Notes: a model not told the origin generated them from the sequence alone. DNA of 64,000 nt from a virus (IMGVR_UViG_3300006793_000017:27814-91813), one strand, 5' to 3'. Positions 1-44,978 are shown, counted from the stretch's first letter. Numbers and translations are program-made.

Positions 1-1
1 T

Positions 2-283
2 GAATGCTTAACACGACACGGACATGAATTTGATTGGCACGGATATATTAGCATTGATCCTAAAAGTACACAAACTATATTTGATAATTGGACTATTGAT
101 AACAAGCCAGGTCAAATATATTTAGGACCAGGACATGCTGAACACGAAGTTAAAGTACTAGAACCATATGAAGGTTATAGAACAACAATAGGGTTTGATG
201 TACATTCAATACCAAATAATTCTTTTATTAGAAATTATGAAGAAAGACCTTTTGGTAATATGGGGTTAATGCCATTACTATGA
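2..283 (+). CDS. 5'-truncated 2OG-Fe(II) oxygenase-like protein
   Basis: Frame 2 reads open from the window edge (ECLTRHGHEFDWHGYI...GHAEHEV...RTTIGFD) to TGA 281-283, which overlaps the next ATG (ATGA); HxH...H...RxT pattern. Confidence 0.55.
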   Translation, partial: ECLTRHGHEFDWHGYISIDPKSTQTIFDNWTIDNKPGQIYLGPGHAEHEVKVLEPYEGYRTTIGFDVHSIPNNSFIRNYEERPFGNMGLMPLL

Positions 284-906
284 TAGAAGATTACAAAATT
301 ATACGAGGCGCAGTATCAACAGAACTCTGCGAATTTCTTGCATTAGAGTACGAACTGATGGAAGAAGTTTGTAAAGTATTGTATGCTGGTGCCGACTTAT
401 CTGACCTTGAAGAAAACACTTTTGCGAGATACGCTCCCTTGATGTTTGAAACATTGATGGTAAAACTAAATCCTTTGGTTGCAAAAGAATGGGGTCATGA
501 GTTGGTACCAGTGTACTCTTATGCTAGGATATATTATAAAGGATCGCAACTTAAAAAACACTTTGACAGACCTAGCTCTGAAGTATCGGTATCAGTTGCA
601 ATATCAAAAGAACCAGAATACAATTGGCCAATATACATTAAAAATGAAGATGGTGTTGAACACGAGATTAATTTAGATGTTGGTGATATTGTTATATACA
701 GTGGACGTAGGCACGAACACTGGAGAAACCCGTATGAGGGTAACAAAGTAGTACAAGCGTTTCTACAGTACGTAGAAGCCGATGGACCATATTCACATTT
801 AAAATGGGATACGAAACCAGCATTAGGACTTCCTGCAGAATTTGTTCGTCAAGAGATAAAAGACGAAGTGCAGAATGTTAAAGATATGCTTGGATTTAAG
901 CGTTAA
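280..906 (+). CDS. 2OG-Fe(II) oxygenase (prolyl-hydroxylase-like)
   Basis: YARIY...LKKHFDRPS (HxD), GDIVIYSG...HEHWR distal His, QAFLQY; typical of marine phage oxygenases. Confidence 0.8.
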   Translation: MIEDYKIIRGAVSTELCEFLALEYELMEEVCKVLYAGADLSDLEENTFARYAPLMFETLMVKLNPLVAKEWGHELVPVYSYARIYYKGSQLKKHFDRPSSEVSVSVAISKEPEYNWPIYIKNEDGVEHEINLDVGDIVIYSGRRHEHWRNPYEGNKVVQAFLQYVEADGPYSHLKWDTKPALGLPAEFVRQEIKDEVQNVKDMLGFKR

Positions 907-1065
907 TTAGTCGCTGACTTTAGTAGGGCCTGCAACGATTTTTGCTGGACCGTGACGCTCTTCAAAGATTTTTGCTGCTGCTTCTTTGCTTGATGCTTCA
1001 CAAGTGTCCTGAGTAATAGGCGCTTTACCTACCTCTTTTCTAATAATCATTTTGTAAGTTGCCAT
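907..1065 (-). CDS. 52-aa small protein MATYKMIIRKEVGKAPITQDTCEASSKEAAAKIFEERHGPAKIVAGPTKVSD
   Basis: Hand-translated; AGGAG Shine-Dalgarno upstream and TAAATA at 1088-1093 (minus); below ORF-track cutoff. Confidence 0.7.
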   Translation of the reverse strand: MATYKMIIRKEVGKAPITQDTCEASSKEAAAKIFEERHGPAKIVAGPTKVSD

Positions 1066-1086
1066 ATTTGTATAACTCCTATATCT

Positions 1087-2631
1087 TTATTTATCAATAT
1101 TCTTAATCCATTCATCGATTGTCCAGAATGGAGCCACAAGCTCTTTGTAGCGTTTTACGTTAGTATTTAGCACGTTTCTGCCTGTTTCAAGTTTATCTTC
1201 AAACGCAGTGCTAAAGTATGTGTTAGAAAATATATGTAATCCCTGTATTACTTGCATCCATGCTGCTGGCGAATAACCGTTAAAAACAGGCTCTACACCA
1301 ACAAGTCCTTGCCAATAATGATCCCAGTCTTTTAGTTTCATTGCTAATGATTCTGGAATACGTTCTGGGTCATGTATATGACTTTTCCAGAAGTCTGTGT
1401 CATCTCTACGTCCTCTAAAATGTAATGCAATAAAGTCTTTAATATCTTCATAAACTGTATTAACTCTATGATTAAATCTATCTCTGTACAGCGTGTGATC
1501 TCTTCTAGTAGGATCCCACAAATCTTGCATAGCATAAAGTGACTCACAAATAACTGCAATACCGTTTGCTTCTAATGGTTCTAAGAAACCACTGCTTAAA
1601 CCAATTGCAAAAACATTATTTTTCCAACTTTCTTTTGCTACTTCGGGTGTGTATGTAAATGAAGCAATAGGTTCTATATGTTCACCACATACACTTCTTG
1701 CTTCCTCTAATGCTTGGTCTGCTGTAATATAATTGTTGTCATAAATGTAACCATTACCAGATCTGTGTTGCAAATTAATATTCCAACGCCAACCATATTT
1801 CATTGCTGTTGCATTTGTTGTTACTGAATACTTGGGTTCGTCCCACCATGCAATAACAGAGTTGTGTGTAAAATGATCTGAGTAATCAGAGTATTCTGCT
1901 CCTAATTTTTTTCTAATTAGTAACTGTGCAAATCCAGTACAATCAACAAACCATTCTCCTTCAATTTCTCTGTTATCATCTAAAATTAAAGTTGTTATAT
2001 CACCTTTATCATTTTGTTTGGCATCTACGTATGTGCCTTCGATCAATGTAATATCTCTTTTAAGAGCCACTTCTTTCAAGTATGCTGCCGTTGCTCTACT
2101 CTCATTGTGCCACATAGCAATAATTGGTAGTTCTGATTTAGAAGCACCAAACGGAACTTTATTTTCTTTAATAAAATAGTTTGCATAGAATGCATCTGCT
2201 AAAGGAACATCATTACCTAGCAGTGTAGCCTGATATAAATTCTTTTGCCTTTCAGCTGCTATTATACCGGTAAATTGTCCTAAGTTCATATTAAAGACAC
2301 TAGCGTCAGGATTGTCTGACCATCCATCTAACCAAGGTGCATAATCTGTTTGCAAACAATGAATAAATTCACTACCTACTCCTGACCAATCTTTAAAACG
2401 TCCACCTAGTTTTGGTGTAGCATTTGCTTTAGCAACAAAGTCATCAAAATCGATATCAAGATACTTTAACATATCAACAAATGTAGTTGTACCGCTTTCA
2501 CCAGCAATAATAGGTGGCTTATTAGGATCTTCAACAACAGTAATATTCATACTAGGTCTTGTCTTTTTTATTAGTAGTGCAGTTAACCAGCCTGCAACGC
2601 CACCGCCTAATATAACTGTATTAGAGTTCAT
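1087..2631 (-). CDS. Flavin-dependent halogenase, tryptophan halogenase (PrnA-like) family, copy 3
   Basis: GGGVAG FAD motif, ATPKLG (K79 equivalent), FVDCTGF, GWRWNI, FLEPLEANG. Confidence 0.88.
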   Translation of the reverse strand: MNSNTVILGGGVAGWLTALLIKKTRPSMNITVVEDPNKPPIIAGESGTTTFVDMLKYLDIDFDDFVAKANATPKLGGRFKDWSGVGSEFIHCLQTDYAPWLDGWSDNPDASVFNMNLGQFTGIIAAERQKNLYQATLLGNDVPLADAFYANYFIKENKVPFGASKSELPIIAMWHNESRATAAYLKEVALKRDITLIEGTYVDAKQNDKGDITTLILDDNREIEGEWFVDCTGFAQLLIRKKLGAEYSDYSDHFTHNSVIAWWDEPKYSVTTNATAMKYGWRWNINLQHRSGNGYIYDNNYITADQALEEARSVCGEHIEPIASFTYTPEVAKESWKNNVFAIGLSSGFLEPLEANGIAVICESLYAMQDLWDPTRRDHTLYRDRFNHRVNTVYEDIKDFIALHFRGRRDDTDFWKSHIHDPERIPESLAMKLKDWDHYWQGLVGVEPVFNGYSPAAWMQVIQGLHIFSNTYFSTAFEDKLETGRNVLNTNVKRYKELVAPFWTIDEWIKNIDK

Positions 2632-4126
2632 GGTTTACCTCCAAGTAACGATCTTTTAATATGTTTAATGCTTCTCGATGTGTGTAAATTTTTTCATCTG
2701 GCCAATCTGCTAATTGTTTTTTCATTAAATTTGTTAAACTTTCATTGTGTCTTTCTGCAAAATTTTCTTCCCAAAACTTTTTACAAGCATCATAATCAAA
2801 AAGATGTAAGCCGTGCATAACTTGTATCCAATTAAGATAACTGAACATAAGAGACGGATCAACAAAGTGTCCTGAATTAGGATAAGCAGTTTTAAATGAC
2901 TGTAGTGTTTCTTCGTTGAATGGTGTTAGAACAATACCTTCATCACACCAACGCCAAAACTCTGAGTCGTTACGTTTTGTAAGATAATGTATCTGAATAA
3001 AGTCAATAATGTTAGTAGCAATTAAATTCATTCTTTCATTAAATCTTTTTGCAACAGTATCATCATTTTTTCTATAGTACAATAAATTACCTACAAGTAT
3101 ATTAACTTGTTGTATTGTTGAACCTATTGATGTTGCTTCTAAAGGTTCTACAAACATAGCACTAAGCCCTAATGATACACAATTCTTTGTCCAAAATTCG
3201 TTAACATATCCAGCATTAAATTTTACACGTTTACCTATTTCTAAATCTTTAATACCTAAATGCTTTTCATAGTGCTGCGATACTTCATCATATGCTTGTG
3301 TTTCGTTAATAAATTGATCACTAAACACATAACCATTTCCATATCTATCTTGTGTAGGAATTCTCCAACACCAACCACTGCTTAGTGCAGTTGCTTCTGT
3401 ATAAGATGGGATGTCTTCAGTTCTAGCAGTAGGAAACGCAATAGCACTATTCATAGGAAGTTGATGTCCACAGTCTATCCATTTTTGTCCTAGTTTACTT
3501 GATATAACTCTATTAAATCCACTACAGTCAATAAAGAAATCACTAGCATGTTTTGTTCCAGCTTCGTCAACTAGCTCTTTAACATTACCTGTTTCATCTA
3601 AAATTACATCTTCAATATCAACATCTAATACTTCGATTCCTCTTTCTACACATAATCGTGTAAAGAATTCATTTAATTTATTTGTATCAAAATGGTATTG
3701 AGCAAAACTATCATGAAAAGGTTCAGCATGTAAACTACTAGCAGTTCTTTTCCAAACAGTATCAATAGGATCCCAATTTTCAGCAATCATTCTCATCCAT
3801 TGAACAGGTGCTTCACTAAGTGGATCTAGTGCTGCAAACTGTTCTGTTAAACTATGAAAATAATGTTTCCCATCTCCTTGCCAATTAGTAAACTTAATAC
3901 CGATTTTAAATGTTGCTCCTGTTTCTCTAACAATCGTTGGAACATCAACATCAATGTGGTGCATAAATCTTTGCCAGTGTTCTGTACTACCTTCACCAAC
4001 ACCAATAATACCAATCTTACTTGATCTTAAAAGTTTTAATTTTAATAGAGGGTGAGATTTTCTAAGTGTTAGTGCTGCAACTAATCCACTTGTTCCGCCA
4101 CCTAATATTGTTAGAGATTTTATCAT
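2621..4126 (-). CDS. Flavin-dependent halogenase, PrnA-like, copy 2
   Basis: GGGTSG, GVGEGST, ATFKIG, FIDCSGF, GWCWRIP, FVEPLEATS. Confidence 0.9.
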   Translation of the reverse strand: MIKSLTILGGGTSGLVAALTLRKSHPLLKLKLLRSSKIGIIGVGEGSTEHWQRFMHHIDVDVPTIVRETGATFKIGIKFTNWQGDGKHYFHSLTEQFAALDPLSEAPVQWMRMIAENWDPIDTVWKRTASSLHAEPFHDSFAQYHFDTNKLNEFFTRLCVERGIEVLDVDIEDVILDETGNVKELVDEAGTKHASDFFIDCSGFNRVISSKLGQKWIDCGHQLPMNSAIAFPTARTEDIPSYTEATALSSGWCWRIPTQDRYGNGYVFSDQFINETQAYDEVSQHYEKHLGIKDLEIGKRVKFNAGYVNEFWTKNCVSLGLSAMFVEPLEATSIGSTIQQVNILVGNLLYYRKNDDTVAKRFNERMNLIATNIIDFIQIHYLTKRNDSEFWRWCDEGIVLTPFNEETLQSFKTAYPNSGHFVDPSLMFSYLNWIQVMHGLHLFDYDACKKFWEENFAERHNESLTNLMKKQLADWPDEKIYTHREALNILKDRYLEVNHEL

Positions 4127-5610
4127 AACTTATAGGTAGTCCTTCCTTTTAATGTTTCTATTGCTTCTCTACATTTCATCCAGCCGTTACCTGGAGTTTG
4201 TGGTAGCATAGATAATTGTGCTGTATCTTCTGCACGATATTTACTATAACGCTCATTATATAATTTTTTAATGCTAGGAATATCAAACATACGCAATCCA
4301 TGCATAATCTGTATCCAATTTAAATTATCGTAAATTCTAAAACTTCCGTGCATACCATCTTCGGGTAATAATATTTGATTTACAAATTGTTTTTTAAAAT
4401 TTTCTAAGTTTTGTTTATTAAAAGGAGTAACTTCTATTTCATTTTTACACCAACGCCAAAACTTTGAATCTTCTCTTTGTGTAAAATAATGCAATTGAAT
4501 AAAGTCTAACACATTACTTAAACAGTCATCAAATATCCTATTGTATTCATTTATAGTTGCTTGATCGCCACGTTCCCAAGATGCTAGTGCGCCAACTAAT
4601 GCTCTTGATTGTTGTATAGTTGTTGAAATACTACTTGCTTCTAAAGGCTCTACAAAGTTACTGCTAAGTCCAATGCTAACACAGTTCTTAATCCAAAACT
4701 TATTAACCTTACCTGAAACAAAATTAATTTTTCTACCTATATTAATTGTATCTGAAAATAAAGATTGTATTTCTGCTATGGCTTCGTCTTCAGAAATAAA
4801 TTGATCACTAAACACATAACCGTTACCAAAACGTTCTTGTACAGGACTACGCCAATGCCAACCAGCACTTAATGCTTTAGAAAGTGTGTAAGGTGGTATC
4901 TCTTCTTGGCGTGGTGTTTGAAAAGCAATAGCACTATTCATAGGTAAAAATGATGACCAGTCTACCCATTCAGCACCTAGTTTACTTGCAATAACTCTTT
5001 TGAATCCACTACTATCAATAAAAAAGTCTGCGGTGTGTGTTCGTCTTTCTATGTCGACTACTGAGTCTACAAAGCCCCCGTCACCAATGTTAACATCTAC
5101 AACTTCTGTAGTTATAACGTTAATACCTGCTTCAATGCATCTCTTTTCTAAAAATGCATTTAATTTTTCACTATCAAAATGGAACTGATAGTAATCTTCA
5201 AATGGCGGACTTACATATCCTTGCATAGGTAAATCCCAATGCAACGATTCAGAATCAACACCTTCTGAAATCAATCTCATCAATGTATGTGCATCACCTG
5301 TGTATGCATCTACAAATATATATGGTTCTGCTAAACTGTGATAGTAGCTGGTTTTGTCACCGTGCCAATCTTCAAACTTAATACCAATCTTAATAGTTGC
5401 ACCACATTCTCTTGCAAGATCAGTCATTGTAATACCTACTGCATCAGCGAATCTTCTCCAATGTTCAGTACTACCTTCGCCAACACCAATAGTTCCAATT
5501 TTATCAGATTTAATAAGTGTAATGTCTAAGTTGTCAATAGACTTTTTATGATATAGTGCAGTCATTAGTCCAGCATTACCGCCACCTAGCACAAGTAATT
5601 TTTTAATCAT
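4123..5610 (-). CDS. Flavin-dependent halogenase, PrnA-like, copy 1
   Basis: GGGNAG, GVGEGST, ATIKIG, FIDSSGF, GWHWRSP, FVEPLEASS. Confidence 0.9.
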   Translation of the reverse strand: MIKKLLVLGGGNAGLMTALYHKKSIDNLDITLIKSDKIGTIGVGEGSTEHWRRFADAVGITMTDLARECGATIKIGIKFEDWHGDKTSYYHSLAEPYIFVDAYTGDAHTLMRLISEGVDSESLHWDLPMQGYVSPPFEDYYQFHFDSEKLNAFLEKRCIEAGINVITTEVVDVNIGDGGFVDSVVDIERRTHTADFFIDSSGFKRVIASKLGAEWVDWSSFLPMNSAIAFQTPRQEEIPPYTLSKALSAGWHWRSPVQERFGNGYVFSDQFISEDEAIAEIQSLFSDTINIGRKINFVSGKVNKFWIKNCVSIGLSSNFVEPLEASSISTTIQQSRALVGALASWERGDQATINEYNRIFDDCLSNVLDFIQLHYFTQREDSKFWRWCKNEIEVTPFNKQNLENFKKQFVNQILLPEDGMHGSFRIYDNLNWIQIMHGLRMFDIPSIKKLYNERYSKYRAEDTAQLSMLPQTPGNGWMKCREAIETLKGRTTYKL

Positions 5611-6224
5611 TTCTTTTCCTTGGTATGTACTTCTAAACTTGCAACAGAGTCTGTTGCTAGATTAAAATTTATATCCCCATATGGCATTGTATTAAAACTT
5701 ATAATGTATCTATCTTTTTCTCCGAAGTGTGGAGTTGAACTATGAAATAACCAACTAGGAAATAAAACAAGTTTTCCAGCTTCAGCATCACTAAACCAAT
5801 GCGGACTATAATCATGTCTAAGTACTTCTAGTTGTGCTTCTGTTCTATGCTTAACAGGATCTTCAAATACTGTTGCAGCACCTTCAGTAACATAATACAC
5901 CCCACTCAAAAAACTCATAGAGTGTCTGTGATATTGTAAACGCATACCTTCTCTAGGCAATGCTCTATTAAACCAACTGCTTGTAATTTTAAAACCATCG
6001 CAGTCAAATTTTTGTTGTACGTGAACTTGCTTTATGCAATCATTAATCCATGTAAACAATGGATTCAATTCTTTTTTGTCATGTAAGTTTCTCATAGAAC
6101 TAATTGTATCAGAATGTTTTACATGATCTGCATACTGCTCACACAAAGGAATCAAAGCATCGTTGTCAAGCTCTGTGTTCTTAAATTCAAATAGTTCTGT
6201 TGGAAACGTAGGTATTACTTTCAT
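5607..6224 (-). CDS. Putative 2OG-Fe(II) oxygenase (TIGR02466-like)
   Basis: SWFN...HRHSMSFLSGVYY, LVLFPSWLFHS, RYIISFN. Confidence 0.82.
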   Translation of the reverse strand: MKVIPTFPTELFEFKNTELDNDALIPLCEQYADHVKHSDTISSMRNLHDKKELNPLFTWINDCIKQVHVQQKFDCDGFKITSSWFNRALPREGMRLQYHRHSMSFLSGVYYVTEGAATVFEDPVKHRTEAQLEVLRHDYSPHWFSDAEAGKLVLFPSWLFHSSTPHFGEKDRYIISFNTMPYGDINFNLATDSVASLEVHTKEKK

Positions 6225-6802
6225 TAAAACTCAACCCAGCCTGTTAAAAGATATTTTTCACCACTTAATGGCGGATTGCCTCTGTGAGTATGCGTGTAAC
6301 TTGCGGGCCAAACAACTAAGGTTCCTTCAGTAGCAGCAATACGCTTCTTTTGGTACAACCATTCTGTTTCTCCGCCTTCGTCAACTGTATTAAGATACAT
6401 TCCCCACGCTGCAATTCTACCTGACCTTTCTTTTGTATCTGATTCAAAATGCCAAGTATGATATCCTTCTCCTGGAAGGGTTTTTTGAAGTTTCATAAAG
6501 TAAACTCTGTGATCGCCGCACTCGCCTAACACACTATAATGTGCAGTATATTGCTTCCAGCAATCAATAAATCTATTCATAAAAGTATGTATAGTAGGAT
6601 TGTCTGTTGACATATTCAATGCAGGTTGTTCAAGAAGAAACGCAGCATGATCTGCTTTATTATGTGCTGAATTATCTCCTAAAGTTTGACGACTAGCAGT
6701 TAAATGCAAGTCGTTCAATTTTTCATAATATTCAATAAGGGCTGCACATTCTTCGGGTCTCATAACGCCGGTCCATGTTGCAATATCGTTCTCTATAATC
6801 AT
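6224..6802 (-). CDS. 2OG-Fe(II) oxygenase (P4H-like); start reassigned to ATG 6802
   Basis: GEGYHTWHFE, MYLNTVDEGGETE, WPASYTHTHRG, KYLLTGW; TAAATA-N5-ATG before 6802. Confidence 0.85.
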   Translation of the reverse strand: MIIENDIATWTGVMRPEECAALIEYYEKLNDLHLTASRQTLGDNSAHNKADHAAFLLEQPALNMSTDNPTIHTFMNRFIDCWKQYTAHYSVLGECGDHRVYFMKLQKTLPGEGYHTWHFESDTKERSGRIAAWGMYLNTVDEGGETEWLYQKKRIAATEGTLVVWPASYTHTHRGNPPLSGEKYLLTGWVEF

Positions 6803-6807
6803 ATTAC

Positions 6808-6858
6808 TATTTATGGCCAGTTTATTAATGACATGAATAGTCTGAAAGCAGATAAATA
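6808..6858. promoter_or_regulatory. Divergent pair of T4-type late-promoter cores (TAAATA on minus 6808-6813; on plus 6853-6858)
   Basis: Matches core of T4 late consensus TATAAATA; same motif recurs before >15 genes. Confidence 0.7.
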
Positions 6859-6888
6859 CTTTACAACAACAGTGGATGAACTCATAAT

Positions 6889-8622
6889 ATGGCAAATTTA
6901 CCTATCATTAATAACCTTCGTGTAGTACCTAGAGATGCAGAATTTCTGGATAGAAAAACAGGTGCTCGTGGAGAAATATTCTATGATAAAGACAATAATA
7001 CAATTAGACTGTACGATAGTCAGATTGTAGGTGGTTTACCATTAGCAAGAGGCGATTTAACTAACGTTACTAACGCAATATTTGCAGCAAAAGCAACAGC
7101 AGCAGGCGTTGGTGGCGGTAGCGGAAGTGGTAGTATCGAAGTTAGCCAATCTGCACCAAGTACGCCGGAAGAAGGTACAATTTGGTTTAACAGTACTAAT
7201 GGTACACTGTATGTCTATATCAATGATGGAGATAGTAACCAATGGGTACAACCAGTATTAGGTTACCCGGCTATTCCGTCAAATTTACAAGATTTATCAA
7301 ACGTAACTATTACATCACCAAGTGCTGATCAAGTTTTAAAATGGAACGGCAGCGCATGGATTAACGCAGCAGCACCAGCAGCTGGATTAGATCAAGCAGC
7401 AGTTAGGTCAAGTGTTTCAGTTGGCACAGAAGGAACTGCGGCAGGTGACGGAGCAGTTAGTTACGACAACGGAACAGGTGTGTTTACATATACACCACCA
7501 TTACTAAACAGTTTAACAGTCAGTGGTAACTTAGATATGGGTAGTAATGATATTACTACAACAGGCAAAGTTTACTACGCAAACGTATTTGCAACCGAAG
7601 GTGATTTACCTAGCGCCACAACTTATCATGGCATGTTTGCTCATGTACATGGAACAGGTAAAGGTTATTATGCTCATGCAGGTGCATGGTCTAAACTAGC
7701 AAACGAAGCAACAACACTTGCTGGGTACGGAATTACAGATGCTGCAACTTCAGCACAAGGTACTAAAGCAGACAGTGCATTACAAGATTTAACAACAACT
7801 TCTATTACAACACTTGCAGATGTTTCAACAAGTTCACCAAGTACTAACCAAGTACTTAAATGGGACGGCGCACAATGGTCGCCAGCATCAGACGCAGTTG
7901 GTAGTGGTGCTATAACTGCAACTATTGGTGGAGCAACACAGGCAAATCCAGTTGTAATTAGTACAACTTCTGCACATGGATTCTACGAAGGACAACCTGT
8001 AACTATTACAGGTGTTGTTGGTATGACAGAACTTAATGGTAACGAATACTATGCAAACATTACTAGCACATTAGAGTTTGCTTTGTATTCTGATAGTGGA
8101 TTAACATCAAGTGTTAACGGTACAGGATTTACAGCATACACATCAAGTGGTACAGCAACAGGTGGTGCAACGGCTGCTGAAGTTGGTAACTTTGTATTCA
8201 CAGGTTCAAACATTGACACTAGTGACAGTTCAGGAATAAACTTTACTCCAGGTGTGTTAATGCAAAGTGATCTAACTGTTGAAAACGATTTAACTGTCAA
8301 TAACTTGCTCACAGCAGCACAATTTTCAGTAACAGATTTCACAACAACAAATCATACAACAACTAACTTAACTGTTAGTGATACGCTATCAGTAAAAACT
8401 ATCGCTCAAACCGATACTGGAACGCCACAAATTACAAGTAGTTCAACTCTAGTTTTAGATACACAAGACGGTGTAAGAGTTACTGGTGCTCCGTTTAGAT
8501 TACCTAGTTTTACAACAACAGAGAAAAATGCATTGTCGCCTGGGAACGGTGATATGATATATGATTCTACGTTGAATAAAGCACAGGTATATGAAAACGG
8601 TGCTTGGGCGAGTCTAGTATAG
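6889..8622 (+). CDS. Virion structural / tail fibre-like protein
   Basis: G/T/S/A-rich, QVLKWNG repeats, TTLAGYGITDA motif, FCCH-like module (ANPVVISTTSAHGF..G), GDMIYDST..YENGAW tip. Confidence 0.7.
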   Translation: MANLPIINNLRVVPRDAEFLDRKTGARGEIFYDKDNNTIRLYDSQIVGGLPLARGDLTNVTNAIFAAKATAAGVGGGSGSGSIEVSQSAPSTPEEGTIWFNSTNGTLYVYINDGDSNQWVQPVLGYPAIPSNLQDLSNVTITSPSADQVLKWNGSAWINAAAPAAGLDQAAVRSSVSVGTEGTAAGDGAVSYDNGTGVFTYTPPLLNSLTVSGNLDMGSNDITTTGKVYYANVFATEGDLPSATTYHGMFAHVHGTGKGYYAHAGAWSKLANEATTLAGYGITDAATSAQGTKADSALQDLTTTSITTLADVSTSSPSTNQVLKWDGAQWSPASDAVGSGAITATIGGATQANPVVISTTSAHGFYEGQPVTITGVVGMTELNGNEYYANITSTLEFALYSDSGLTSSVNGTGFTAYTSSGTATGGATAAEVGNFVFTGSNIDTSDSSGINFTPGVLMQSDLTVENDLTVNNLLTAAQFSVTDFTTTNHTTTNLTVSDTLSVKTIAQTDTGTPQITSSSTLVLDTQDGVRVTGAPFRLPSFTTTEKNALSPGNGDMIYDSTLNKAQVYENGAWASLV

Positions 8623-8631
8623 GTATAAAGC

Positions 8632-10236
8632 ATGGCTGAAAAAGAATATATTGTCACAGTAAAAGCCGGTATTGATCTTAATGCATTTGATGCAGAAATG
8701 GTTGCATCATTTGGCGATGAAACTATTCCAAGCAGAAGCGTTGAAATTGCAAATGCACGTCCGGCCTCACAAAGAAACACACATTATTACTTGTCAGATG
8801 ATGAAGCAACTACACTTGCTAACGACAGCAGAGTAATAGCAGTTGAGATTCCACCAGAACAAAGAGATGATATTGAGATTACACTTAGAGCAAGGCAGTC
8901 AGGAACATTCTATAGAGGTTCCGGCAGCGCAGGTAACATTGATAACTGGGGACTTAAACGTTGTCAGAGTTTAACAGAAAACTATGGTAATGGTAGCACA
9001 CCTTCCGGCGAACAGATAGTTACACAAATAACAGAAGATTACTTGTATCCACTAGATGGTACAGGTGTTGATGTTGTTATTCAAGATTCGGGTATTGAAC
9101 CCTTGCATCCAGAATGGCAAGATGCTAACGGTGTTTCTAGATTAGTTGAGCTAGACTGGTATGATGGATTCAGCGGCGGTGGCTCAATGCCTGCAGAACA
9201 TTACACAGACTATCATGGCCATGGAACACACTGCGCTGGCACAGTTGCAGGTAAAACATTTGGTTGGGCAAAGAATGCAAAAATATATGCAGTAAAGATG
9301 ATTCCAGGAACAGCAGATCCTAATGGTGGTATTCCTATTTCAGATTGTTTTGATGTTATTAGAGAATGGCACAATAACAAACCAGTTACAAGCACAGGAT
9401 ATAAAAGACCAACTATTGTTAATATGAGTTGGGGATACGGAACTAATATTCCACAAGCAACAACGCCAGTAGGCGGAAGTTACAGAGGAACTAATTGGTT
9501 TTGGGGAACAACATACAATAATGTTTCCGACTTATGGGCAAACACAGGTGTTGTACCTTATGTAGGTTCAAGATGGAAAATACCTGTACAGGTTGCATCA
9601 GTTGATGCTGATGTAGAAGAACTTATTAATGCAGGAGTACATGTCTGTATTGCAGCAGGAAATGATTATTACAAAGTTACAACTTCAGGAGAAATTGATT
9701 ATAATAACACAGTTTCGTGGACTAGTTACGGAACACAGTTTTACAATAGACCTCCTTCTCCATATGCAACAGGAGCATTTAACGTAGGAAACATTGACAG
9801 TAGAATTCTTAACGATCAAGATGTAACAAAGCCAGACAGTATGAAAGGCCCAGCGGTAACAATATGGGCACCTGGTACAAATATTATTAGTGCATGTTCA
9901 CAGATATCAGAAATAGGTGGCCCAACACCATATAAATTAGATCCTGCATTTGGACAGCAATCTATTAGTGGTACAAGTATGGCATGTCCGCAAGTATGTG
10001 GTGTAGGAGCATTACATTTACAAGCAAAGCCTGAACTAACACCAGCACAATTAAAGCAAGAAATAGAAGCAAATTCGCCACAAGCAATGTATTCAACAGG
10101 GCTTTCAAATGATTATAATGCATATACTACTAGTATTATGGGGTCTGAAGGTAGAATATTATACAACAAATATAAGACAGATGAGTCACATAAAATTCAA
10201 GGTAGTGTTACTATCACAAACTTAGGTATCGCATAA
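8632..10236 (+). CDS. Subtilisin-like S8 serine protease with N-terminal prodomain
   Basis: Catalytic triad motifs VVIQDSG, HGTHCAG, SGTSMACP; oxyanion AAGN. Confidence 0.92.
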   Translation: MAEKEYIVTVKAGIDLNAFDAEMVASFGDETIPSRSVEIANARPASQRNTHYYLSDDEATTLANDSRVIAVEIPPEQRDDIEITLRARQSGTFYRGSGSAGNIDNWGLKRCQSLTENYGNGSTPSGEQIVTQITEDYLYPLDGTGVDVVIQDSGIEPLHPEWQDANGVSRLVELDWYDGFSGGGSMPAEHYTDYHGHGTHCAGTVAGKTFGWAKNAKIYAVKMIPGTADPNGGIPISDCFDVIREWHNNKPVTSTGYKRPTIVNMSWGYGTNIPQATTPVGGSYRGTNWFWGTTYNNVSDLWANTGVVPYVGSRWKIPVQVASVDADVEELINAGVHVCIAAGNDYYKVTTSGEIDYNNTVSWTSYGTQFYNRPPSPYATGAFNVGNIDSRILNDQDVTKPDSMKGPAVTIWAPGTNIISACSQISEIGGPTPYKLDPAFGQQSISGTSMACPQVCGVGALHLQAKPELTPAQLKQEIEANSPQAMYSTGLSNDYNAYTTSIMGSEGRILYNKYKTDESHKIQGSVTITNLGIA

Positions 10237-10258
10237 ATACAGTAGAGGAACAAATATT

Positions 10259-11887
10259 ATGGCACTAGCATTTCCAAACAGTCCTTTAGTAGGAGACCAA
10301 TATACAAGCGGTGGCGTTACATGGCAATGGAACGGTACAACTTGGGATATCGTTATCTCTGGTGGAGGCGGTGGAGGCGGTGGTTCAAGCCTATCATTTG
10401 CTACTATTGCAGTATCAGGACAAGATAACGTTTCAGCAGATAGTGGAGCAGATACACTAACACTAGTTGCTGGTGCAGGAATGTCTATCACTACAAATGC
10501 TAGTACAGATACAGTTACACTAACATCAAGCGGCGGCGGAGCAGGCGGAAATATATTTTCAACTATTTCAACTGATACAGGTGCAGATGTTGTAGCAGAT
10601 GCTTCAACAGATACATTAACACTTACAGGTGGAACAAATATTCAATCAGTAGGTGATGCAGCATTAGATAAAGTAACGCTTGATATGATTCCTTTTTCAA
10701 TTGATTTTTTATCAGATGTAGATACTACAACAACAGTACCAACAACAGGACAAGTTCTAAAGTGGAACGGTACATCTTGGGTGCCAGGTGTTGATAGTAC
10801 AACAGGTGGCGCAGGTACTGATGCAGATACACTAGATGGTTTTGACAGTTCATACTTTTTAAATTATAATAACCTAAGTAACAAACCTAGTTTATTAGCA
10901 CTTACAGCCTTAAGCGTTGGTGCTAATGCAACAGCATCGGGTAACGGTGGACTTGCATATGATGATTCAACAGGTGTGTTTACTTACACACCACCTAATC
11001 TTACAAGTTTCTTAACAAGTGTAGCATTTACTGACATAACAAGTAAACCAACTACAATTGCAGGTTACGGAATTACAGATGCTTTCGATGGAGCATATAG
11101 CTCACTTACAGGTACACCAAGTATTCCATCAAATAACAATCAGTTAATTAACGGTGCAGGATACATTACAGGAATTGGTTCATTGTCTATTGATGCACTA
11201 AGTGATGTTGACACAACAACTGCTGCACCAACAAGCGGACAAGTACTTTCTTGGAACGGCAGTAACTGGGCACCTTCAGCATCCGGCGGTGGTGGAGATG
11301 TAAACCAAAATGCGTTCTCTACTATTATGGTAGCAGGACAAAGTGATGTTGTAGCAGACAATCCAACTGACACACTAACACTTACAGCCGGTACAAACAT
11401 TACACTTACAACAAACGCAAGTGGCGATAGTGTTACTATTACAGCATCAGGTGGCGGAGCAACAGACTTTGACGACTTAGGTGATGTAACATCAGCAGGA
11501 TTAAAAGTTTCAGATGTTTACTTGCCAGCAATTACACAATTGGTTGTTGGACACTCAGGTACTTCGTCATATAGTTTTGATCAATATTCTGGGGGCAATC
11601 CTACAATTTATGCAATTAGCGGAACAACTATTGCATTTAACTTACAGGGTGTTTCATCAAGTCATCCATTCCAAATTCAAAACGCAGCAGGTTCAGCATA
11701 CGATACAGGACTAGTACATGTAACAGATACTGGAACAGTAACTACAGGTTCTAGTGCAAATGCAAGAACTGGTGGAATATTATATTGGAAAGTTCCTGAA
11801 GGAATATCAGGTGGTTACAGATATCAGTGTACTAGCCACGCTGCTATGGTAGGTTCAATTAATATTAAGAGTTTTGGTTCAATCTAG
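10259..11887 (+). CDS. Tail fibre-like structural protein with C-terminal cupredoxin-like domain
   Basis: MALAFPNSP start, repeated DTLTLxAG modules, QVLKWNG, DADTLDG; C-term HPFQI...YQCTSHAAM. Confidence 0.7.
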   Translation: MALAFPNSPLVGDQYTSGGVTWQWNGTTWDIVISGGGGGGGGSSLSFATIAVSGQDNVSADSGADTLTLVAGAGMSITTNASTDTVTLTSSGGGAGGNIFSTISTDTGADVVADASTDTLTLTGGTNIQSVGDAALDKVTLDMIPFSIDFLSDVDTTTTVPTTGQVLKWNGTSWVPGVDSTTGGAGTDADTLDGFDSSYFLNYNNLSNKPSLLALTALSVGANATASGNGGLAYDDSTGVFTYTPPNLTSFLTSVAFTDITSKPTTIAGYGITDAFDGAYSSLTGTPSIPSNNNQLINGAGYITGIGSLSIDALSDVDTTTAAPTSGQVLSWNGSNWAPSASGGGGDVNQNAFSTIMVAGQSDVVADNPTDTLTLTAGTNITLTTNASGDSVTITASGGGATDFDDLGDVTSAGLKVSDVYLPAITQLVVGHSGTSSYSFDQYSGGNPTIYAISGTTIAFNLQGVSSSHPFQIQNAAGSAYDTGLVHVTDTGTVTTGSSANARTGGILYWKVPEGISGGYRYQCTSHAAMVGSINIKSFGSI

Positions 11888-12147
11888 CATTTAAGATCTT
11901 TCAATCTTTTATCAAGCATTTTTCTAACAACAGCAATGTCCTGACGTTGTTCTGTTGCTTGTGTCATAGCCTTTGCATCATATGCAAGGTTTGCATGAAC
12001 TTCATCTAATTTTTTTACTACATTAATAAGTTTTTCAAGCAGTCCGTTGCATTGCGCTTTCTCTGCTTCGTCGAGTACGTTTTGAATTCTTTCATGAAAA
12101 TCTCTAACGTCTTTTTGAAATCTAGGTTCTTCAGATAGTATTAGCAT
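11884..12147 (-). CDS. Hypothetical helical protein
   Basis: ORF overlapping neighbours, coiled-coil-like. Confidence 0.55.
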   Translation of the reverse strand: MLILSEEPRFQKDVRDFHERIQNVLDEAEKAQCNGLLEKLINVVKKLDEVHANLAYDAKAMTQATEQRQDIAVVRKMLDKRLKDLKC

Positions 12148-12520
12148 CTTTGTGTAACTCCAAAATAGTTTCTATTTTTGTTCTTATTAGATTATTATTT
12201 AATGTGTTTCTAAGTCCAGTATGTAAATTCTTGGGCAAGTAATTTAAATCACACCAACTCATTGTATTTGCTTTTGTAGTTAAAAATTCTTTCTTTACTA
12301 AACAAATATAAGTTCCGTATTCAAAACCTTTATCTTGGCTCAAATACAATTCAATAGGAACAATTTTACCTTTAGAAAAATCTTCTTGTAATTCTAAACT
12401 GTCATCAATTACAGAAGTTTTTCTTGCAAACGTAGGAACAGACCACTTTTCATTCTCTAAGATTAGTAGTATTCGTTGAGTGTCTGTTGACAGATATAGT
12501 ATTCCTGCTCTCTTTTGCAT
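12131..12520 (-). CDS. Degenerate Nudix-fold-like protein
   Basis: AGILYL..RILLIL..W.VP N-terminus and W....LPK.LH.GL C-terminus resemble Nudix fold but REUxEE box absent; TAAGTA-N5-ATG. Confidence 0.4.
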   Translation of the reverse strand: MQKRAGILYLSTDTQRILLILENEKWSVPTFARKTSVIDDSLELQEDFSKGKIVPIELYLSQDKGFEYGTYICLVKKEFLTTKANTMSWCDLNYLPKNLHTGLRNTLNNNLIRTKIETILELHKDANTI

Positions 12521-12528
12521 TAAAATAC

Positions 12529-14025
12529 TTATGCTGGGTTAGGGTCAATTCTCCAATAACCTGGCGAGTATTCACCTTCGAATGATTTAAGCCATTCAGT
12601 ACCCGTCCATTTATATTGGATGCCTGTTTTTAAATTTTGGAAATATGTTGGATTTGCTAGTGTGTTTGGATCAGCTAATGTAACCCAGTTTGTACCATTC
12701 CATTCAATAATAGCATTGGCTACAATAATAGGGTCTTCACCTGTTGTTCCTTTCCATGCATCAGGACCATCATACGCTTCATTGTATGGAGTTTCTCTAT
12801 AACTTTGTCCAACGTTATCACTATCGTTAATATTATCAAGAACTAGATATCGTGTACCTAGTGGTATTGCTGTATAACTTCCCCATTTCTCAATAGGATT
12901 AAACTTGTAAGGATCAATAATAGCATCAACAGTAGCACGGGCAGCAACGCCATTTACAGTTGAAGCAATAGTAGTATTAGTTGGAATAGTATCTTGATCA
13001 AATGTTATTAACAATACTTTAGGGTTAGAAGGATTAACAGCATACGATCCAACCATTTCAAATCCTGTAGGCTGTCTAAAGTATATTCTTGCTCCTGCTT
13101 TAAATCCGCCTAATCTATCTAACACAGCATTCCAATCAATTTCTGTAGTTTTACTTTTTTGTTCTTTAACATCAATTCCTAAAGCATTTACTGCTTCATC
13201 ATCGTCTACAATAGTTAAGTCATAATCGAATGGTTGATTGTTGTTTGATTTAAACAATAACACACCGTAACGTGCATTCATGTATTGAGTAGATTGTGCT
13301 GTTGTAGCATCATAAACTAAGTCATTTAAATTTGCTACATCACCAGTCTCTGTAAATATGTTTGCAATAACACTTCTAACAACTCCAAGTTTTTTAACTT
13401 TAGTTGGCGGAGAAATGTATATTGGCATTGTAAATTCTAGTGTGCATACATCAATGTCGTCGTCAACTCCTGTAGGCACGTTACGTGATGTAAAGTTAGT
13501 TGATTCTAAATTAATTACACTTAAACTGGTCCAGTCAATATAGTTGTCTGTTGTTTGAATAGCCATAGATGGATTAAACAACACTAATATTTGTTCTAGT
13601 ATTTGTAATTTTTGATCTGTATTAGAAGTCCAAATATCTGCTTTCATTGTTAAGATAAAAGGAGTAGGCATAAGTCTTTCAACAGTGTATGCGTTACCTT
13701 GTGCGCCTGTGTAGTTAGGCTCACCTGTGCTTTCGTCAAATGTAAAGTCTCTTTCTCTTACACTCATTTTACTAACAAATGAAGGATCAGTTAAACGATC
13801 TCTATCAATTTGCAATCCTGAAATGTAACAAGACATACGAGGAACAGTAGGTAACTTGTTCTCAGAATTTTCTCTGATAATTGAAGCAACCTGTCTTGTA
13901 AGATCACCATACATAACAGGAATTGTTTGCTGAGTTTTATCACCTGCTTCATATTTAAAGCCTATGAAAGCTCTCATAAACTGAGTTACGTATCTTCTTA
14001 TTTGTCCGTCGTAAAAGAAATCCAT
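12529..14025 (-). CDS. Tail terminator / sheath stabiliser (T4 gp15-like)
   Basis: FFYDGQIRRY..F, IPVMYG, PRMS, QILEQILVLFNP, LEFTMP. Confidence 0.75.
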   Translation of the reverse strand: MDFFYDGQIRRYVTQFMRAFIGFKYEAGDKTQQTIPVMYGDLTRQVASIIRENSENKLPTVPRMSCYISGLQIDRDRLTDPSFVSKMSVRERDFTFDESTGEPNYTGAQGNAYTVERLMPTPFILTMKADIWTSNTDQKLQILEQILVLFNPSMAIQTTDNYIDWTSLSVINLESTNFTSRNVPTGVDDDIDVCTLEFTMPIYISPPTKVKKLGVVRSVIANIFTETGDVANLNDLVYDATTAQSTQYMNARYGVLLFKSNNNQPFDYDLTIVDDDEAVNALGIDVKEQKSKTTEIDWNAVLDRLGGFKAGARIYFRQPTGFEMVGSYAVNPSNPKVLLITFDQDTIPTNTTIASTVNGVAARATVDAIIDPYKFNPIEKWGSYTAIPLGTRYLVLDNINDSDNVGQSYRETPYNEAYDGPDAWKGTTGEDPIIVANAIIEWNGTNWVTLADPNTLANPTYFQNLKTGIQYKWTGTEWLKSFEGEYSPGYWRIDPNPA

Positions 14026-21000: not shown

Positions 21001-21641
21001 TGCCTATTACATCACTTAACAACTTTGGAGTACCAACAGACGCAGGCAACCAAGTGCTCTTGATGCCTAAACTAAAATATCGCTTTAGGGTGACACTTTT
21101 AGGATTTGGAGTTAGTGCTGCAACAGAACTTACTAAACAGGTTGTAGATGTTTCAAGACCAAAAGTAGGTTTTGAAGAAATGCAGTTAGACGTGTACAAC
21201 TCAAAGGTATTCTTAGCAGGTAAGTATACTTTTGAAACACTAACATTAAACTTACGTGACGATGCTAGTGGCTTTGTACAGAAACTAGTCGGCCAACAGG
21301 TCCAGAAGCAGTTCGACTTTGTTGAACAAGCATCTGCTAGATCAGGTATTGACTACAAATTCTCAACTAAAATTGAAGTACTAGACGGTGGTAACGGTGC
21401 TAGTGAAAACGGAGTAAGCGTATTAGAAACAGCAAACATGTATGGTTGTTTCCTAACTAACGTAGACTACGGTGACGCTAACTACGCTACTAACGAAGCT
21501 ATGCAAGTTGCACTTACTATACGTTTTGATAACATGGTACAGTGGGGCGCAGGCGAGCAAGGCGTTGGCGTTGGTATTGGCGCAAACGTTGGCAGAACAA
21601 TTGGTGAATCTACTACAGGTTCTTCAGGCGCTCAAGGCTAA
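21000..21641 (+). CDS. Tail tube protein (gp19-like)
   Basis: Coupled to sheath; KYRFRV, RP, AGK, LRDD, YGCF, IRFD. Confidence 0.85.
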   Translation: MPITSLNNFGVPTDAGNQVLLMPKLKYRFRVTLLGFGVSAATELTKQVVDVSRPKVGFEEMQLDVYNSKVFLAGKYTFETLTLNLRDDASGFVQKLVGQQVQKQFDFVEQASARSGIDYKFSTKIEVLDGGNGASENGVSVLETANMYGCFLTNVDYGDANYATNEAMQVALTIRFDNMVQWGAGEQGVGVGIGANVGRTIGESTTGSSGAQG

Positions 21642-21663
21642 GAGATTTTACAATCAAGTAGAA

Positions 21664-21693
21664 GAAGCCCGGTTTATTTTCCGGGCTTTTTTT
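21664..21693 (+). terminator. Rho-independent terminator
   Basis: AAGCCCGG-loop-CCGGGCTT followed by T-run. Confidence 0.85.
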
Positions 21694-21709
21694 ATGGCTA
21701 AATAATAGT

Positions 21710-22813
21710 ATGGCAAATAAATTCACAAGATTCTTAGGCGATTTCGCAACAGGACTTACCCAACCTAAAGGTATTATGGGTAACTATACTCATGCCACAA
21801 GACTGTTCATTGATAACACAATGCGTCTTGCACCTAAGACTAAATTTAATTATTACGTTAGATTTGAAATGGATCCTATAGCAGTTAAGGCTGCTCACTT
21901 CAAAAGCAAACATGCTGAAGAAACAGGACTGTTAGTTAAAGGAGTAGACTTACCTAAGTTTACTTTCCAAATGGATACACTAAACCAGTATAATAAAAAG
22001 CATAACGTATATAAACGAATTCAATATGATCCTGTGCAGTTTACTATGCACGATGATAACCAAGGTGTTATAAGTGCTATGTGGGCTTTATACTATGGAT
22101 ACTACATTGCAGATAGATCTAATCCTACAGCAGCGTTTGATAGAGATCAATATAGAAATAAAGAAACAGGCAATTATGCATTTGGTTTTGATAACGGATC
22201 TACTGCGGACTTCTTTAAATCTGTTACTATCTTTACAATGGGACGTAGACGCTTTGTTGGCTACACACTAGTTAATCCAAAAATACAACAGTGGACAGCA
22301 GGTGGTATGGAAATGGCAGCAGGTTCTGAAACTGCTGAAAGCACAATGTCATTACAATACGAAGCAGTGCAATACACAGCAGGAACAGTCAGTCAAGGTT
22401 CGCCCAAAGGCTTTGCAAACTTACACTACGATACAGTTTCATCTCCACTAGGTATAGCAGGAGGAGGAACAGGATTACTACTAGGAGAAGGCGGCGTACT
22501 TGACGGACTCGAAGCAGTGTTTGGTGCTGTTGGTAACGGTAGTGCATTTGATAGTCCTAAGTCATTTTTAGGTACAGCAATTGCCGCAGTTAACACATAT
22601 AAAAATATTAGAGGATTAAGTAAAGAATCTATTATTAATGAAGGTGTTAATATTTTAACAAGCCCAGGTGGCATACAACAAATTTCAAATACAATATCAG
22701 GTGCAGCAGGAATATTCTTTCCGAAGAATGATGCAGCCAACGGAACTACTACTGCAAAGAAAAAAGTAACACGTGGCGGCACCGGCGTAGGAAGACAGGA
22801 TATAGGAACATAA
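21710..22813 (+). CDS. Tube-like baseplate/tail-tube initiator protein
   Basis: VDLPKF, NQYN, YDPVQFTMHDD, LQYE: tube-fold paralog. Confidence 0.6.
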   Translation: MANKFTRFLGDFATGLTQPKGIMGNYTHATRLFIDNTMRLAPKTKFNYYVRFEMDPIAVKAAHFKSKHAEETGLLVKGVDLPKFTFQMDTLNQYNKKHNVYKRIQYDPVQFTMHDDNQGVISAMWALYYGYYIADRSNPTAAFDRDQYRNKETGNYAFGFDNGSTADFFKSVTIFTMGRRRFVGYTLVNPKIQQWTAGGMEMAAGSETAESTMSLQYEAVQYTAGTVSQGSPKGFANLHYDTVSSPLGIAGGGTGLLLGEGGVLDGLEAVFGAVGNGSAFDSPKSFLGTAIAAVNTYKNIRGLSKESIINEGVNILTSPGGIQQISNTISGAAGIFFPKNDAANGTTTAKKKVTRGGTGVGRQDIGT

Positions 22814-22814
22814 C

Positions 22815-23180
22815 ATGCCTACTAATTTACCAGCAAAGGAAATACAAGATAGTGCAGCACGTACTAGACTTTACTTTGACCAATACGGTAAAGAACCTTT
22901 AGAATATAATGCTGTTGACTATGATGCAGCAATTGGATTTTTTAAATTAAAAGGTTTCGACGATAGTGCAGCATCAGTTGTTGCATCAGCATTATTAAAA
23001 CAGGCAAAGTTAGAAAACATGCCTATAACAAAAGTGTTAGATGATATTACAGGTTTAGAACAATTACAAATCAGTGCTTTGGTTGCTGAAATTCTAAATA
23101 ATAATAGACCATCAACTTCAACACTAGGCTATCGTACACCGGTAGAAGATGTCTCAAAACAACGTAATGTGAGTGCTTAA
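22815..23180 (+). CDS. Hypothetical structural-module protein
   Basis: ORF within tail operon. Confidence 0.55.
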   Translation: MPTNLPAKEIQDSAARTRLYFDQYGKEPLEYNAVDYDAAIGFFKLKGFDDSAASVVASALLKQAKLENMPITKVLDDITGLEQLQISALVAEILNNNRPSTSTLGYRTPVEDVSKQRNVSA

Positions 23181-24137: not shown

Positions 24138-24145
24138 ATACTAGT

Positions 24146-44940: not shown

Positions 44941-44978
44941 TAATTAAGTATGTATATTAAAATATCTAGGAGTATAAA

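Follow-up and report, generated by a model that had tools for sequence, protein, structure and literature searches.

The DNA analyzed here, a 64,000-nucleotide (nt) stretch designated IMGVR_UViG_3300006793_000017:27814-91813 (hereafter the window), is the final 64 kb of a 91.8-kb IMG/VR viral contig with a CheckV completeness of 25%. It carries a leftward operon at 907-6802 (- strand) coding for two Fe(II)/2-oxoglutarate (2OG) oxygenases, three flavin-dependent halogenases (HAL1 to HAL3), and pep52, a protein of 52 amino acids (aa). This operon is almost certainly the right arm of a conserved 19-gene halogenase/oxygenase island. We propose, with a probability of roughly 0.4, that the island enzymes tailor phage-made structural proteins late in infection, the best candidates being the Gly/His-rich tip proteins encoded next to the island, or their partner protein h171.

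Halogenases and arrays of Fe(II)/2OG oxygenases are among the commonest "auxiliary" genes of marine phages, and the phage halogenase VirX1 is already a biocatalysis tool. To our knowledge, no native substrate has been recognized for these arrays in the sixteen years since their description. At the present locus the array is fixed and syntenic in the tail region of a widespread clade of jumbo phages, it is doubled by a second halogenase operon, and the tip genes are its most constant neighbor. The left arm, a Syn9-type array described in 2010, was already known, while the lineage-specific second operon and the fixation in the jumbo-phage clade are new.

The island and its tip-gene neighbors

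The island is about 15 kb long and consists of two convergent operons, coding in total for four halogenases and about 12 oxygenase-fold proteins. Its rightward left arm contains 13 genes at contig positions 19800-28719, mostly upstream of the window, and ends at window position 906. The two arms meet base to base at 906/907, where the stop codons of a 208-aa gene (+ strand) and of pep52 (- strand) adjoin, and no terminator-like hairpin was predicted at this junction. Upstream of the window, two giant tail-fiber genes, two small fiber-type genes, three tip genes, and h171 precede the 13-gene operon in that order. The tip genes are Gly/His-rich paralogs of the "tail fiber assembly" (Gly_rich_2) type, whose products have a His content of 4-5% and certain Trp, Tyr, and His positions that are invariant. 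The protein h171 has 171 aa and a Trp content of 4.7%, with two Trp residues invariant across five phages. Besides a fourth halogenase (HAL4), the 13-gene operon codes for a gp43-type protein of 269 aa, a protein of 90 aa, and ten proteins with an oxygenase fold, among them a MINA/NO66-like PF08007 (JmjC_2) protein and two DUF6445 proteins. HAL4, located 7 kb upstream of the window, matched VirX1 (6qgm) over the full length (E 4e-195) and, judging from this match, is the VirX1 ortholog. VirX1, from cyanophage Syn10, is a flavin-dependent iodinase (PDB 6QGM; Gkotsi et al., 2019, as cited in PMC8407142). It has a large, open active site and halogenates many small aromatics in vitro (PMC8407142). 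An earlier interpretation of the window, made from its sequence alone and here called the sequence-only reading, had taken VirX1 as an example of a single phage halogenase. This was mistaken, as VirX1 sits in a Syn10 array of two halogenases and ten dioxygenases and its ortholog belongs to the same island as HAL1 to HAL3.

The order and orientation of the 19 genes were kept in 26 IMG/VR loci found with HAL3 and in 39 found with pep52, down to about 50% amino-acid identity; more than 60 contigs of the clade show this synteny. Among these relatives are contigs 147, 162, and 278 kb in length. The 278-kb contig is 75% complete, so that genomes near 370 kb are expected. In all five large relatives that were searched whole, there were exactly four halogenases, and three tip genes lay directly beside the VirX1 ortholog. 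The neighborhood of VirX1-type halogenases was then surveyed more widely in the best 80 of about 590 IMG/VR matches (41-99% identity to HAL4), with open reading frames (ORFs) labeled by profiles. Tip genes were co-oriented with the halogenase and at most 5 kb upstream of it in 54 of the 66 loci with at least 2.5 kb of upstream sequence, and an h171 homolog was placed between the tip genes and the halogenase in 53 of those 54. On the downstream side, where at least 2.5 kb was present in 69 loci, an oxygenase was found in 44 and a gp43-type gene in 32. Several loci contained tip genes, h171, and the halogenase with no detectable oxygenase. The tip-h171-halogenase pattern spans Kyanoviridae genera and the jumbo clade, and the Gly/His-rich tip genes and h171 are the most constant partner of the VirX1-type halogenase. 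A tblastn search with a Gly-rich tip protein gave matches only in Syn9, Syn10, and S-CREM1; it was probably hampered by the low-complexity filter, so the tip genes were tracked by the profile search of the loci.

The left arm matches, gene by gene, the array that Iyer et al. (2010, PMC2938197) described in cyanophage Syn9, where two tryptophan halogenases and a dUTPase-fold protein with a conserved Cys accompany ten dioxygenases in tandem, one of them a MINA/NO66 homolog. The left arm, tip genes, and h171 are collinear with Syn9 gp38-gp54 and also with S-CREM1 ORF67-80, at 39-70% identity. The order shared with Syn9 comprises the tip genes, the small protein gp40, a VirX1-type halogenase, a gp43-type protein, gp44, and oxygenases of several families, among them the JmjC protein gp49 and gp54. 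HAL4 is 54% identical to gp42 and the left-arm JmjC protein 47% identical to gp49, and h171, the gp40 homolog, is preceded by TAAATA and AGGAG, as gp40 is in Syn9. P-TIM40 and S-WAM1 have the same tip-h171-halogenase-array order. However, Syn9 has two adjacent VirX1-type halogenases and the studied island only one, and Syn9 is without the second convergent operon, by which the studied island gains two oxygenases, three halogenases, and pep52. The carriers also differ, since Syn9 belongs to the Kyanoviridae whereas the carrier studied here is a jumbo myovirus of about 370 kb with a PA5oct/Atu_ph07-like backbone. A right-arm counterpart was absent from Syn9, S-CREM1, P-TIM40, and S-WAM1, and no other cultured phage has one; on these comparisons, the right arm is an addition confined to the jumbo clade.

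The carrier is an uncultured marine jumbo myovirus with a genome of about 370 kb. Its gp15-like backbone protein is closest to those of the jumbo phages PA5oct, Phosso, Atu_ph07, and SCTP-2 (27-33% identity), while its fiber, protease, and enzyme genes are closest to cyanomyovirus counterparts. Megablast of the region found no matching sequence among cultured phages.

The right-arm operon and its late-type signals

The first gene of the right arm (6224-6802, - strand) codes for a 192-aa prolyl-4-hydroxylase-like oxygenase of PF13640 (2OG-FeII_Oxy_3, E 8e-10), with HxE at residues 118-120 and a distal His at 171/173. It is followed on the same strand by a 205-aa PF13759 (2OG-FeII_Oxy_5) oxygenase (5607-6224, E 6e-16), HAL3 (4123-5610, 495 aa, PF04820 E 3e-104), its paralog HAL2 of the P-SSM2 PrnA type (2621-4126, 501 aa, PF04820 E 2e-97), the divergent HAL1 (1087-2631, 514 aa, PF04820 E 2e-86), and pep52 (907-1065), which abuts the left arm with no spacer. 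The PF04820 (Trp_halogenase) matches of HAL1 to HAL3 are all full length. The successive gene junctions are TAATG at the 6224 oxygenase, ATGA between the 5607 oxygenase and HAL3, another ATGA, and an 11-nt overlap. The gene content, the three full-length halogenases, the 52-aa ORF, the TAATG/ATGA coupling, and the TAAATA-N5-ATG at 6802 had all been read from the sequence alone, and ORF calling and Pfam and PHROGs searches confirmed them. A TTG at 6895 offered by ORF calling is not the operon start, which is the ATG at 6802. In PF13759-type oxygenases (window 5607-6224; contig 22441-23040 and 23840-24466), the first metal-ligand motif reads HRHS, HCHN, or HIHD, compared with the usual HxD/E, and their metal-ligand set may differ from that of classical 2OG oxygenases.

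The flavin-binding motif and the catalytic Lys and Glu of flavin-dependent halogenases are kept in all four enzymes. The GxGxxG flavin-binding motif reads GGGVAG, GGGTSG, GGGNAG, and GGGSSG in HAL1 to HAL4, respectively. The catalytic Lys (PrnA K79, PyrH K75) and EPLE with its Glu (PrnA E346) are invariant in the halogenase alignment, and the Lys and Glu of HAL3 align onto the PyrH catalytic residues. WxWxIP is intact in HAL2 (WCWRIP) and HAL4 (WVWNIP) and changed in HAL3 (WHWRSP) and HAL1 (WRWNIN); it varies also among other phage halogenase homologs. All four motifs are intact in HAL2. HAL1 to HAL3 have the same fold as VirX1, and its GxGxxG, catalytic Lys, and Glu, but belong to two other lineages. 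They are 26-29% identical to HAL4, and the VirX1 matches of HAL1 and HAL3 are weak (E ~1e-43). HAL2 and HAL3 share 45% identity, and their identity to P-SSM2 gp217 is 36-37% (HAL2 37%), while HAL1 is at most 30% identical to every other phage halogenase compared. Recent duplication as the origin of HAL1 to HAL3 was ruled out, because their identities are 25-45% and the halogenases span three separate lineages. In addition, the alignments of HAL3 and HAL1 to PrnA stop at PrnA residues ~424-430, short of the C-terminal part, which carries the Trp-binding residues. This hints that HAL1 and HAL3 may act on a substrate other than free L-tryptophan.

The nearest cultured-phage relative type of HAL2 and HAL3 is the "PrnA" gp217 of P-SSM2, and small oxygenase genes flank both. 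However, gp217 is located near nrd, petE, and nifU with no tip genes beside it, whereas HAL2 and HAL3 lie inside a fiber-flanked island under late-type motifs. Halogenases of the P-SSM2 type were placed with the auxiliary metabolic genes by Sullivan et al. (2005, 2010), and the cluster was taken up again by Iyer et al. (2021, PMC7824862). Among cellular genomes, a GTDB genome search for HAL3 found nothing closer than homologs of 33-35% identity in Proteobacteria metagenome-assembled genomes (MAGs). They include two tandem halogenases of a Sphingomonas MAG (L077, 6451-9341) inside a GH67/GH43/GH9/LacI polysaccharide-utilization locus, a setting that fits the receptor-linked neighborhoods of Iyer et al. 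(2010). In proteobacterial TonB-receptor/SapC loci, one to three Trp-type halogenases likewise occur together with oxygenases of the PF13759 and JmjC types, and a scaffold synthase is missing (PMC2938197), but these loci are tied to outer-membrane uptake and glycoside hydrolases and are without fiber or tip genes or late-phage motifs. The tandem halogenases of the Sphingomonas MAG also adjoin a 1124-aa ORF on the opposite strand.

The right-arm operon starts from a late-promoter-like TAAATA at 6808-6813 (- strand), 5 nt before the ATG at 6802, which leaves no room for a leader. The combination TAAATA-N5-ATG occurs in 12 copies in the 91.8-kb contig, and all 12 stand at called gene starts, mostly of morphogenesis genes, compared with 3.3 ± 1.7 copies in shuffled sequences. 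In window coordinates, the sites are at 6802, 15449, 17512, 21710, 24146, 25884, 27485, 33238, 54490, 60120, 61859, and 63296. The genes sharing this signal with the operon include those for the head-tail adaptor, the tail tube, the large terminase, and virion structural proteins. The TAAATA core, with contexts such as CATAAATA and GATAAATA, is enriched at morphogenesis gene starts. Upstream of the window, TAAATA is found before h171 and before HAL4, there after a terminator-like hairpin. In T4, the late promoter TATAAATA is located at -10 of late genes and is read by a gp55-type sigma factor. By analogy with TATAAATA, and because TAAATA-N5-ATG is common to the operon and the morphogenesis genes, late-type co-regulation of the two is a reasonable inference; the co-timing with morphogenesis proposed in the sequence-only reading is supported to that extent. 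The TAAATA-N5-ATG spacing leaves no room for a Shine-Dalgarno sequence, which suggests that the late mRNAs may be leaderless or near-leaderless.

Other TAAATA signals precede the neighboring genes. One at 6853-6858 (+ strand), 30 nt before the ATG of the fiber gene at 6889, forms a divergent pair with the operon-start signal at a distance of 39 nt and is kept upstream of the fiber-gene homologs in relatives. Another at 10234-10239 (+ strand) lies 19 nt before the ATG at 10259, a gene also preceded by GAGGA. The pep52 gene has its own TAAATA (1093-1088) followed by an AGGAG ribosome-binding site, a signal spanning 1071-1093 (- strand), 22 nt before the pep52 ATG and overlapping the HAL1 stop codon. 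This TAAATA and the Shine-Dalgarno sequence are kept in 13 of the 13 relatives examined, although the position of the upstream stop codon relative to the motif varies; the signal is thus regulatory and not the result of coding constraint.

The TAAATA at the operon start is also kept in fiber-adjacent relatives. In the related loci L033, L035, L039, and L047, the homologs of the 6224-6802 oxygenase gene are preceded at 20-45 nt by a conserved GATATATATAGTAC-like motif, which was not found upstream of any gene in the studied contig. It may represent a different promoter class, and the operon may then have different timing in those relatives. Sigma-70-like promoters and intrinsic terminators were not above shuffle expectation in window positions 1-12600. 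Metatranscriptome contigs from four RNA libraries (three studies) extend over the operon as well as over the structural genes and carry no information on strand, start, or timing. Single RNA contigs bridge the divergent gap at 6803-6888 (window 6606-8249, runs X1 and X2), so DNA carry-over or read-through is possible in those libraries.

Candidate substrates of the island enzymes

In the mechanism that we propose, the island enzymes would be made late, in the cytoplasm, and would draw on host-supplied FADH2, Fe(II), and 2OG. Before the virion is assembled, they would add halogens and hydroxyl groups to the side chains of aromatic, His, Pro, or Asn residues in a protein made by the phage. The best target would be the Gly/His-rich tip proteins or their partner h171, while the fibers encoded at 6889 and 10259 and pep52 would be poorer ones. 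JmjC_2 and PF13640 are protein hydroxylase families. A protein target is favored because of the tip linkage in 54 of 66 loci, the open active site of VirX1, these hydroxylase families, the lack of a scaffold enzyme, and the invariant Trp, Tyr, and His residues of the tips. Tentatively, the four halogenases and the protein-hydroxylase-type oxygenases might form a phage post-translational modification system acting on receptor-binding tips or h171, in which the second operon would widen the range of positions or halides. If tailoring of the tips or h171 is true, it would provide the first halogenated virion proteins and a native substrate of VirX1, and it would mean a new virion chemistry affecting adsorption, host range, and particle stability in seawater.

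Several points weigh against this proposal. No modified virion protein has been reported in the literature, and the right arm is without a demonstrated link to any particular protein. Since the 66 loci are kin, they are less independent than the counts suggest, and the linkage may reflect only vertical inheritance together with the plastic region after the tail-fiber genes in T4-like genomes. The halogenases of P-SSM2 and S-RIM44 lie among metabolic genes, far from fibers, and the cellular homologs of HAL3 are in a polysaccharide-utilization locus and not beside structural proteins. In L033, L035, L039, and L047, the operon-start TAAATA is replaced by the GATATATATAGTAC-like motif. VirX1 itself accepts many small molecules in vitro (PMC8407142).

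Some of these observations also agree with a small-molecule pathway, in which the enzymes would act stepwise, during infection, on a free amino acid or another metabolite of the host. The compound formed, for example an antibiotic, a signal, or a siderophore-like molecule, would be halogenated and hydroxylated. Iyer et al. (2010, PMC2938197) assigned the Syn9 array to secondary-metabolite synthesis by analogy with the cephamycin and bleomycin pathways, and the enzymes come from many distant families, as in stepwise pathways. The activity of VirX1 on diverse small aromatics (PMC8407142), the cellular homologs in uptake and utilization loci, and the P-SSM2 and S-RIM44 halogenases among metabolic genes point in the same direction. 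However, the island and contig contain no non-ribosomal peptide synthetase, polyketide synthase, ATP-grasp enzyme, transporter, or carrier protein. The sequence-only reading had noted that no flavin reductase or small-molecule synthase lay in the window, and its observation extends to the whole 91.8-kb contig, where no match to Flavin_Reduct, AMP-binding, Condensation, ketoacyl-synt, or ATP-grasp_4 was found. Flavin_Reduct, AMP-binding, and Condensation were likewise not found in the 278-kb relative (75% complete). For the halogenase, linkage with the tip genes is closer than that with the oxygenases, and the motifs are of the late type, a stage at which a secreted metabolite would be of little benefit to a lytic phage. 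We regard a small-molecule product as the main rival, somewhat less probable than virion tailoring, and it would gain weight if virion tailoring proved false. Host-directed action is a further alternative, and an unlikely one in our judgment. The oxygenases would hydroxylate host proteins such as ribosomal proteins, like ROX-type JmjC enzymes, or use up 2OG and so shift nitrogen signaling in the host, and the halogenases would modify the host envelope or another host component. The JmjC_2 family includes ribosomal oxygenases, and cellular homologs of the halogenases are neighbors of outer-membrane receptor and glycan loci. The same gene families were listed by Sullivan et al. (2010) as occurring sporadically in cyanophages, and these authors suggested that they act in 2OG and nitrogen signaling. 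But host takeover is usually early while the motifs here are late-type, twelve distant oxygenase families exceed the need of 2OG drainage, and the conserved tip-gene linkage would be left unexplained.

The sequence-only reading had pointed to other substrates. In its version, the right arm would tailor Trp motifs of the fibers encoded at 6889 and 10259, or pep52 would be a substrate resembling a ribosomally synthesized and post-translationally modified peptide (RiPP), with the S8 protease encoded between the fiber genes as a maturation protease. The divergent TAAATA signals 39 nt apart, the fiber genes adjacent in every relative of at least 72% identity, and the strong promoter-like motif and Shine-Dalgarno sequence of pep52 itself speak for this version. 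Nevertheless, we consider it very improbable. The fibers are not Trp-rich, their motif segment also occurs in phage groups without halogenases, and the fiber-S8 genes form a separate module. The fiber genes are also absent beside the operon in five related lineages (L033, L035, L044, L045, and L047). Gene-neighborhood comparison, which had been suggested as a check of fiber linkage, thus gave a divided answer, with the right-hand fibers unlinked in these lineages and the left-hand tip genes linked to the VirX1-type halogenase in most loci. As for pep52, it is folded and compact, has no Trp, and contains no variable core.

Flanking genes and pep52

The genes diverging from the operon code for two fiber-type proteins and a protease, and the PHROGs and Peptidase_S8 matches agree with the sequence-only reading in this respect. 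The first (6889-8622, + strand) codes for a 577-aa tail-fiber or baseplate-fiber protein (phrog_9729 "tail fiber protein", E 5e-44). Cyanomyoviruses and Microcystis phages have partial homologs of it that bear the annotation of gp9-like connector or tail fiber. The third (10259-11887, + strand) codes for a 542-aa fiber/baseplate-connector-like protein (phrog_677, E 6e-53). Both had been described as Trp-repeat fibers. W-x4-W does occur two times in the 6889 product and three times in the 10259 product, but their Trp content is 1.4-1.5%, compared with a proteome mean of 1.83%. The W-x4-W segment of the 6889-type fiber is also found in the Microcystis Ma-LMM01 group, which is absent from the halogenase matches, and in many cyanomyoviruses. 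The gene between them (8632-10236, + strand) codes for a 534-aa Peptidase_S8 subtilase (PF00082, E 3e-29). Its Asp/His/Ser triad is intact, with DSGI, HGTHCAGT, and GTSMACP aligning to keratinase and aqualysin. Its catalytic His and Ser are separated by an insert of about 200 residues, and it has an N-terminal region of about 130 residues. Homologs of the subtilase in cyanophages carry annotations as virion or baseplate proteins.

Fiber-S8 pairing also occurs in ACG-2014e/h and S-H38, distant from any halogenase, and by this distribution the fiber-S8 module is a separate conserved unit. Besides the relatives of at least 72% identity, several at 37-59% identity have the fiber genes beside the operon. 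In the five lineages where they are missing, the operon follows a second gp43-type gene and neck genes, and four of the five are also without the operon-start TAAATA. On the 3' side of the fiber and S8 genes, the window continues with the gene for a T4 gp15-like sheath stabilizer and then other morphogenesis genes.

Two left-arm genes reach into the window. The second-to-last gene of the arm (2-283, + strand; contig 27539-28096, 185 aa) is an oxygenase-fold gene of which the window holds only the 3' end. It gave a weak PF13759 match (E 0.0099) and matches to phrog_2696 and phrog_81, both "2OG-Fe(II) oxygenase", and is syntenic in all relatives. The last gene (280-906, + strand) is the ortholog of Syn9 gp54 (208 aa, phrog_2954, E 8e-50), with HxD at residues 94-96 and 39-40% identity to Syn9 gp54 and S-CREM1 ORF80. 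The gp54 family is labeled "ferrochelatase-domain" in PHROGs and by Sullivan et al. (2010) and was counted as a 2OG dioxygenase by Iyer et al. (2010, PMC2938197). Within the window, both genes fall short of the Pfam cut-off, and they are called oxygenases because of their orthology to Syn9 gp47-like and gp54 proteins. The earlier claim that two more oxygenases converge from the left is thus upheld by orthology, but not by a Pfam match, and for 2-283 it concerns a 3' end.

The gp43-type protein of the left arm (269 aa, contig 21391-22200) is 49% identical to Syn9 gp43 and has an invariant Cys65. Its AlphaFold2 (AF2) model reached a predicted local distance difference test score (pLDDT) of 40 with eight sequences, a level at which the dUTPase fold is unsupported either way. 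A second gp43-type paralog (~38% identical) heads the three-halogenase operon in L033, L035, L039, L044, and L047, so the gp43-type protein travels with halogenases on both arms. L039 retains a short fiber-like ORF next to its second gp43-type gene. In the 162-kb relative (G003), a lone AMP-binding ORF of 446 aa was found at 44780-45553, about 7 kb from its three-halogenase operon, and a search of the studied contig and of two further large relatives turned up no such ORF.

The pep52 family is small, with only 16 cluster representatives. All relatives have pep52, at identities down to 35%, and conservation extends over the entire protein. The AF2 model of pep52 is a compact beta-beta-alpha-beta mini-protein with a pLDDT of 86.5. 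A RiPP-like precursor was rejected, because there is no pattern of leader and variable core and the protein folds with confidence. Pfam and PHROG searches gave no match for pep52 even at E 5, and Foldseek gave no significant match. The best fold match was T7 Gp2 (Z 6.6, root-mean-square deviation 2.3 A over 49 of 51 residues), with Gp2 accounting for three of the top four entries, and the closest named Atlas cluster was PF16857 RNA_pol_inhib (score 0.76). The predicted fold therefore resembles the small beta-beta-alpha-beta proteins T7 Gp2 and RNA-polymerase epsilon (YkzG). However, the identity to Gp2 is 8-9%, which amounts to no sequence similarity, and the fold scores are within the range of common small folds. 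In addition, Gp2 is the product of a middle gene, whereas pep52 bears late-type signals. Kinship of pep52 to Gp2-like RNA-polymerase inhibitors is thus a lead only, drawn from the predicted model. The pep52 domain also occurs as four to six tandem repeats in proteins of 300-977 aa (P0008, P0012, and P0014-P0016), two of which gave weak PepSY signals (E 5e-4, below the cut-off). Their composition suggests high-GC bacteria, and the N-terminus of P0008 is signal-peptide-like.

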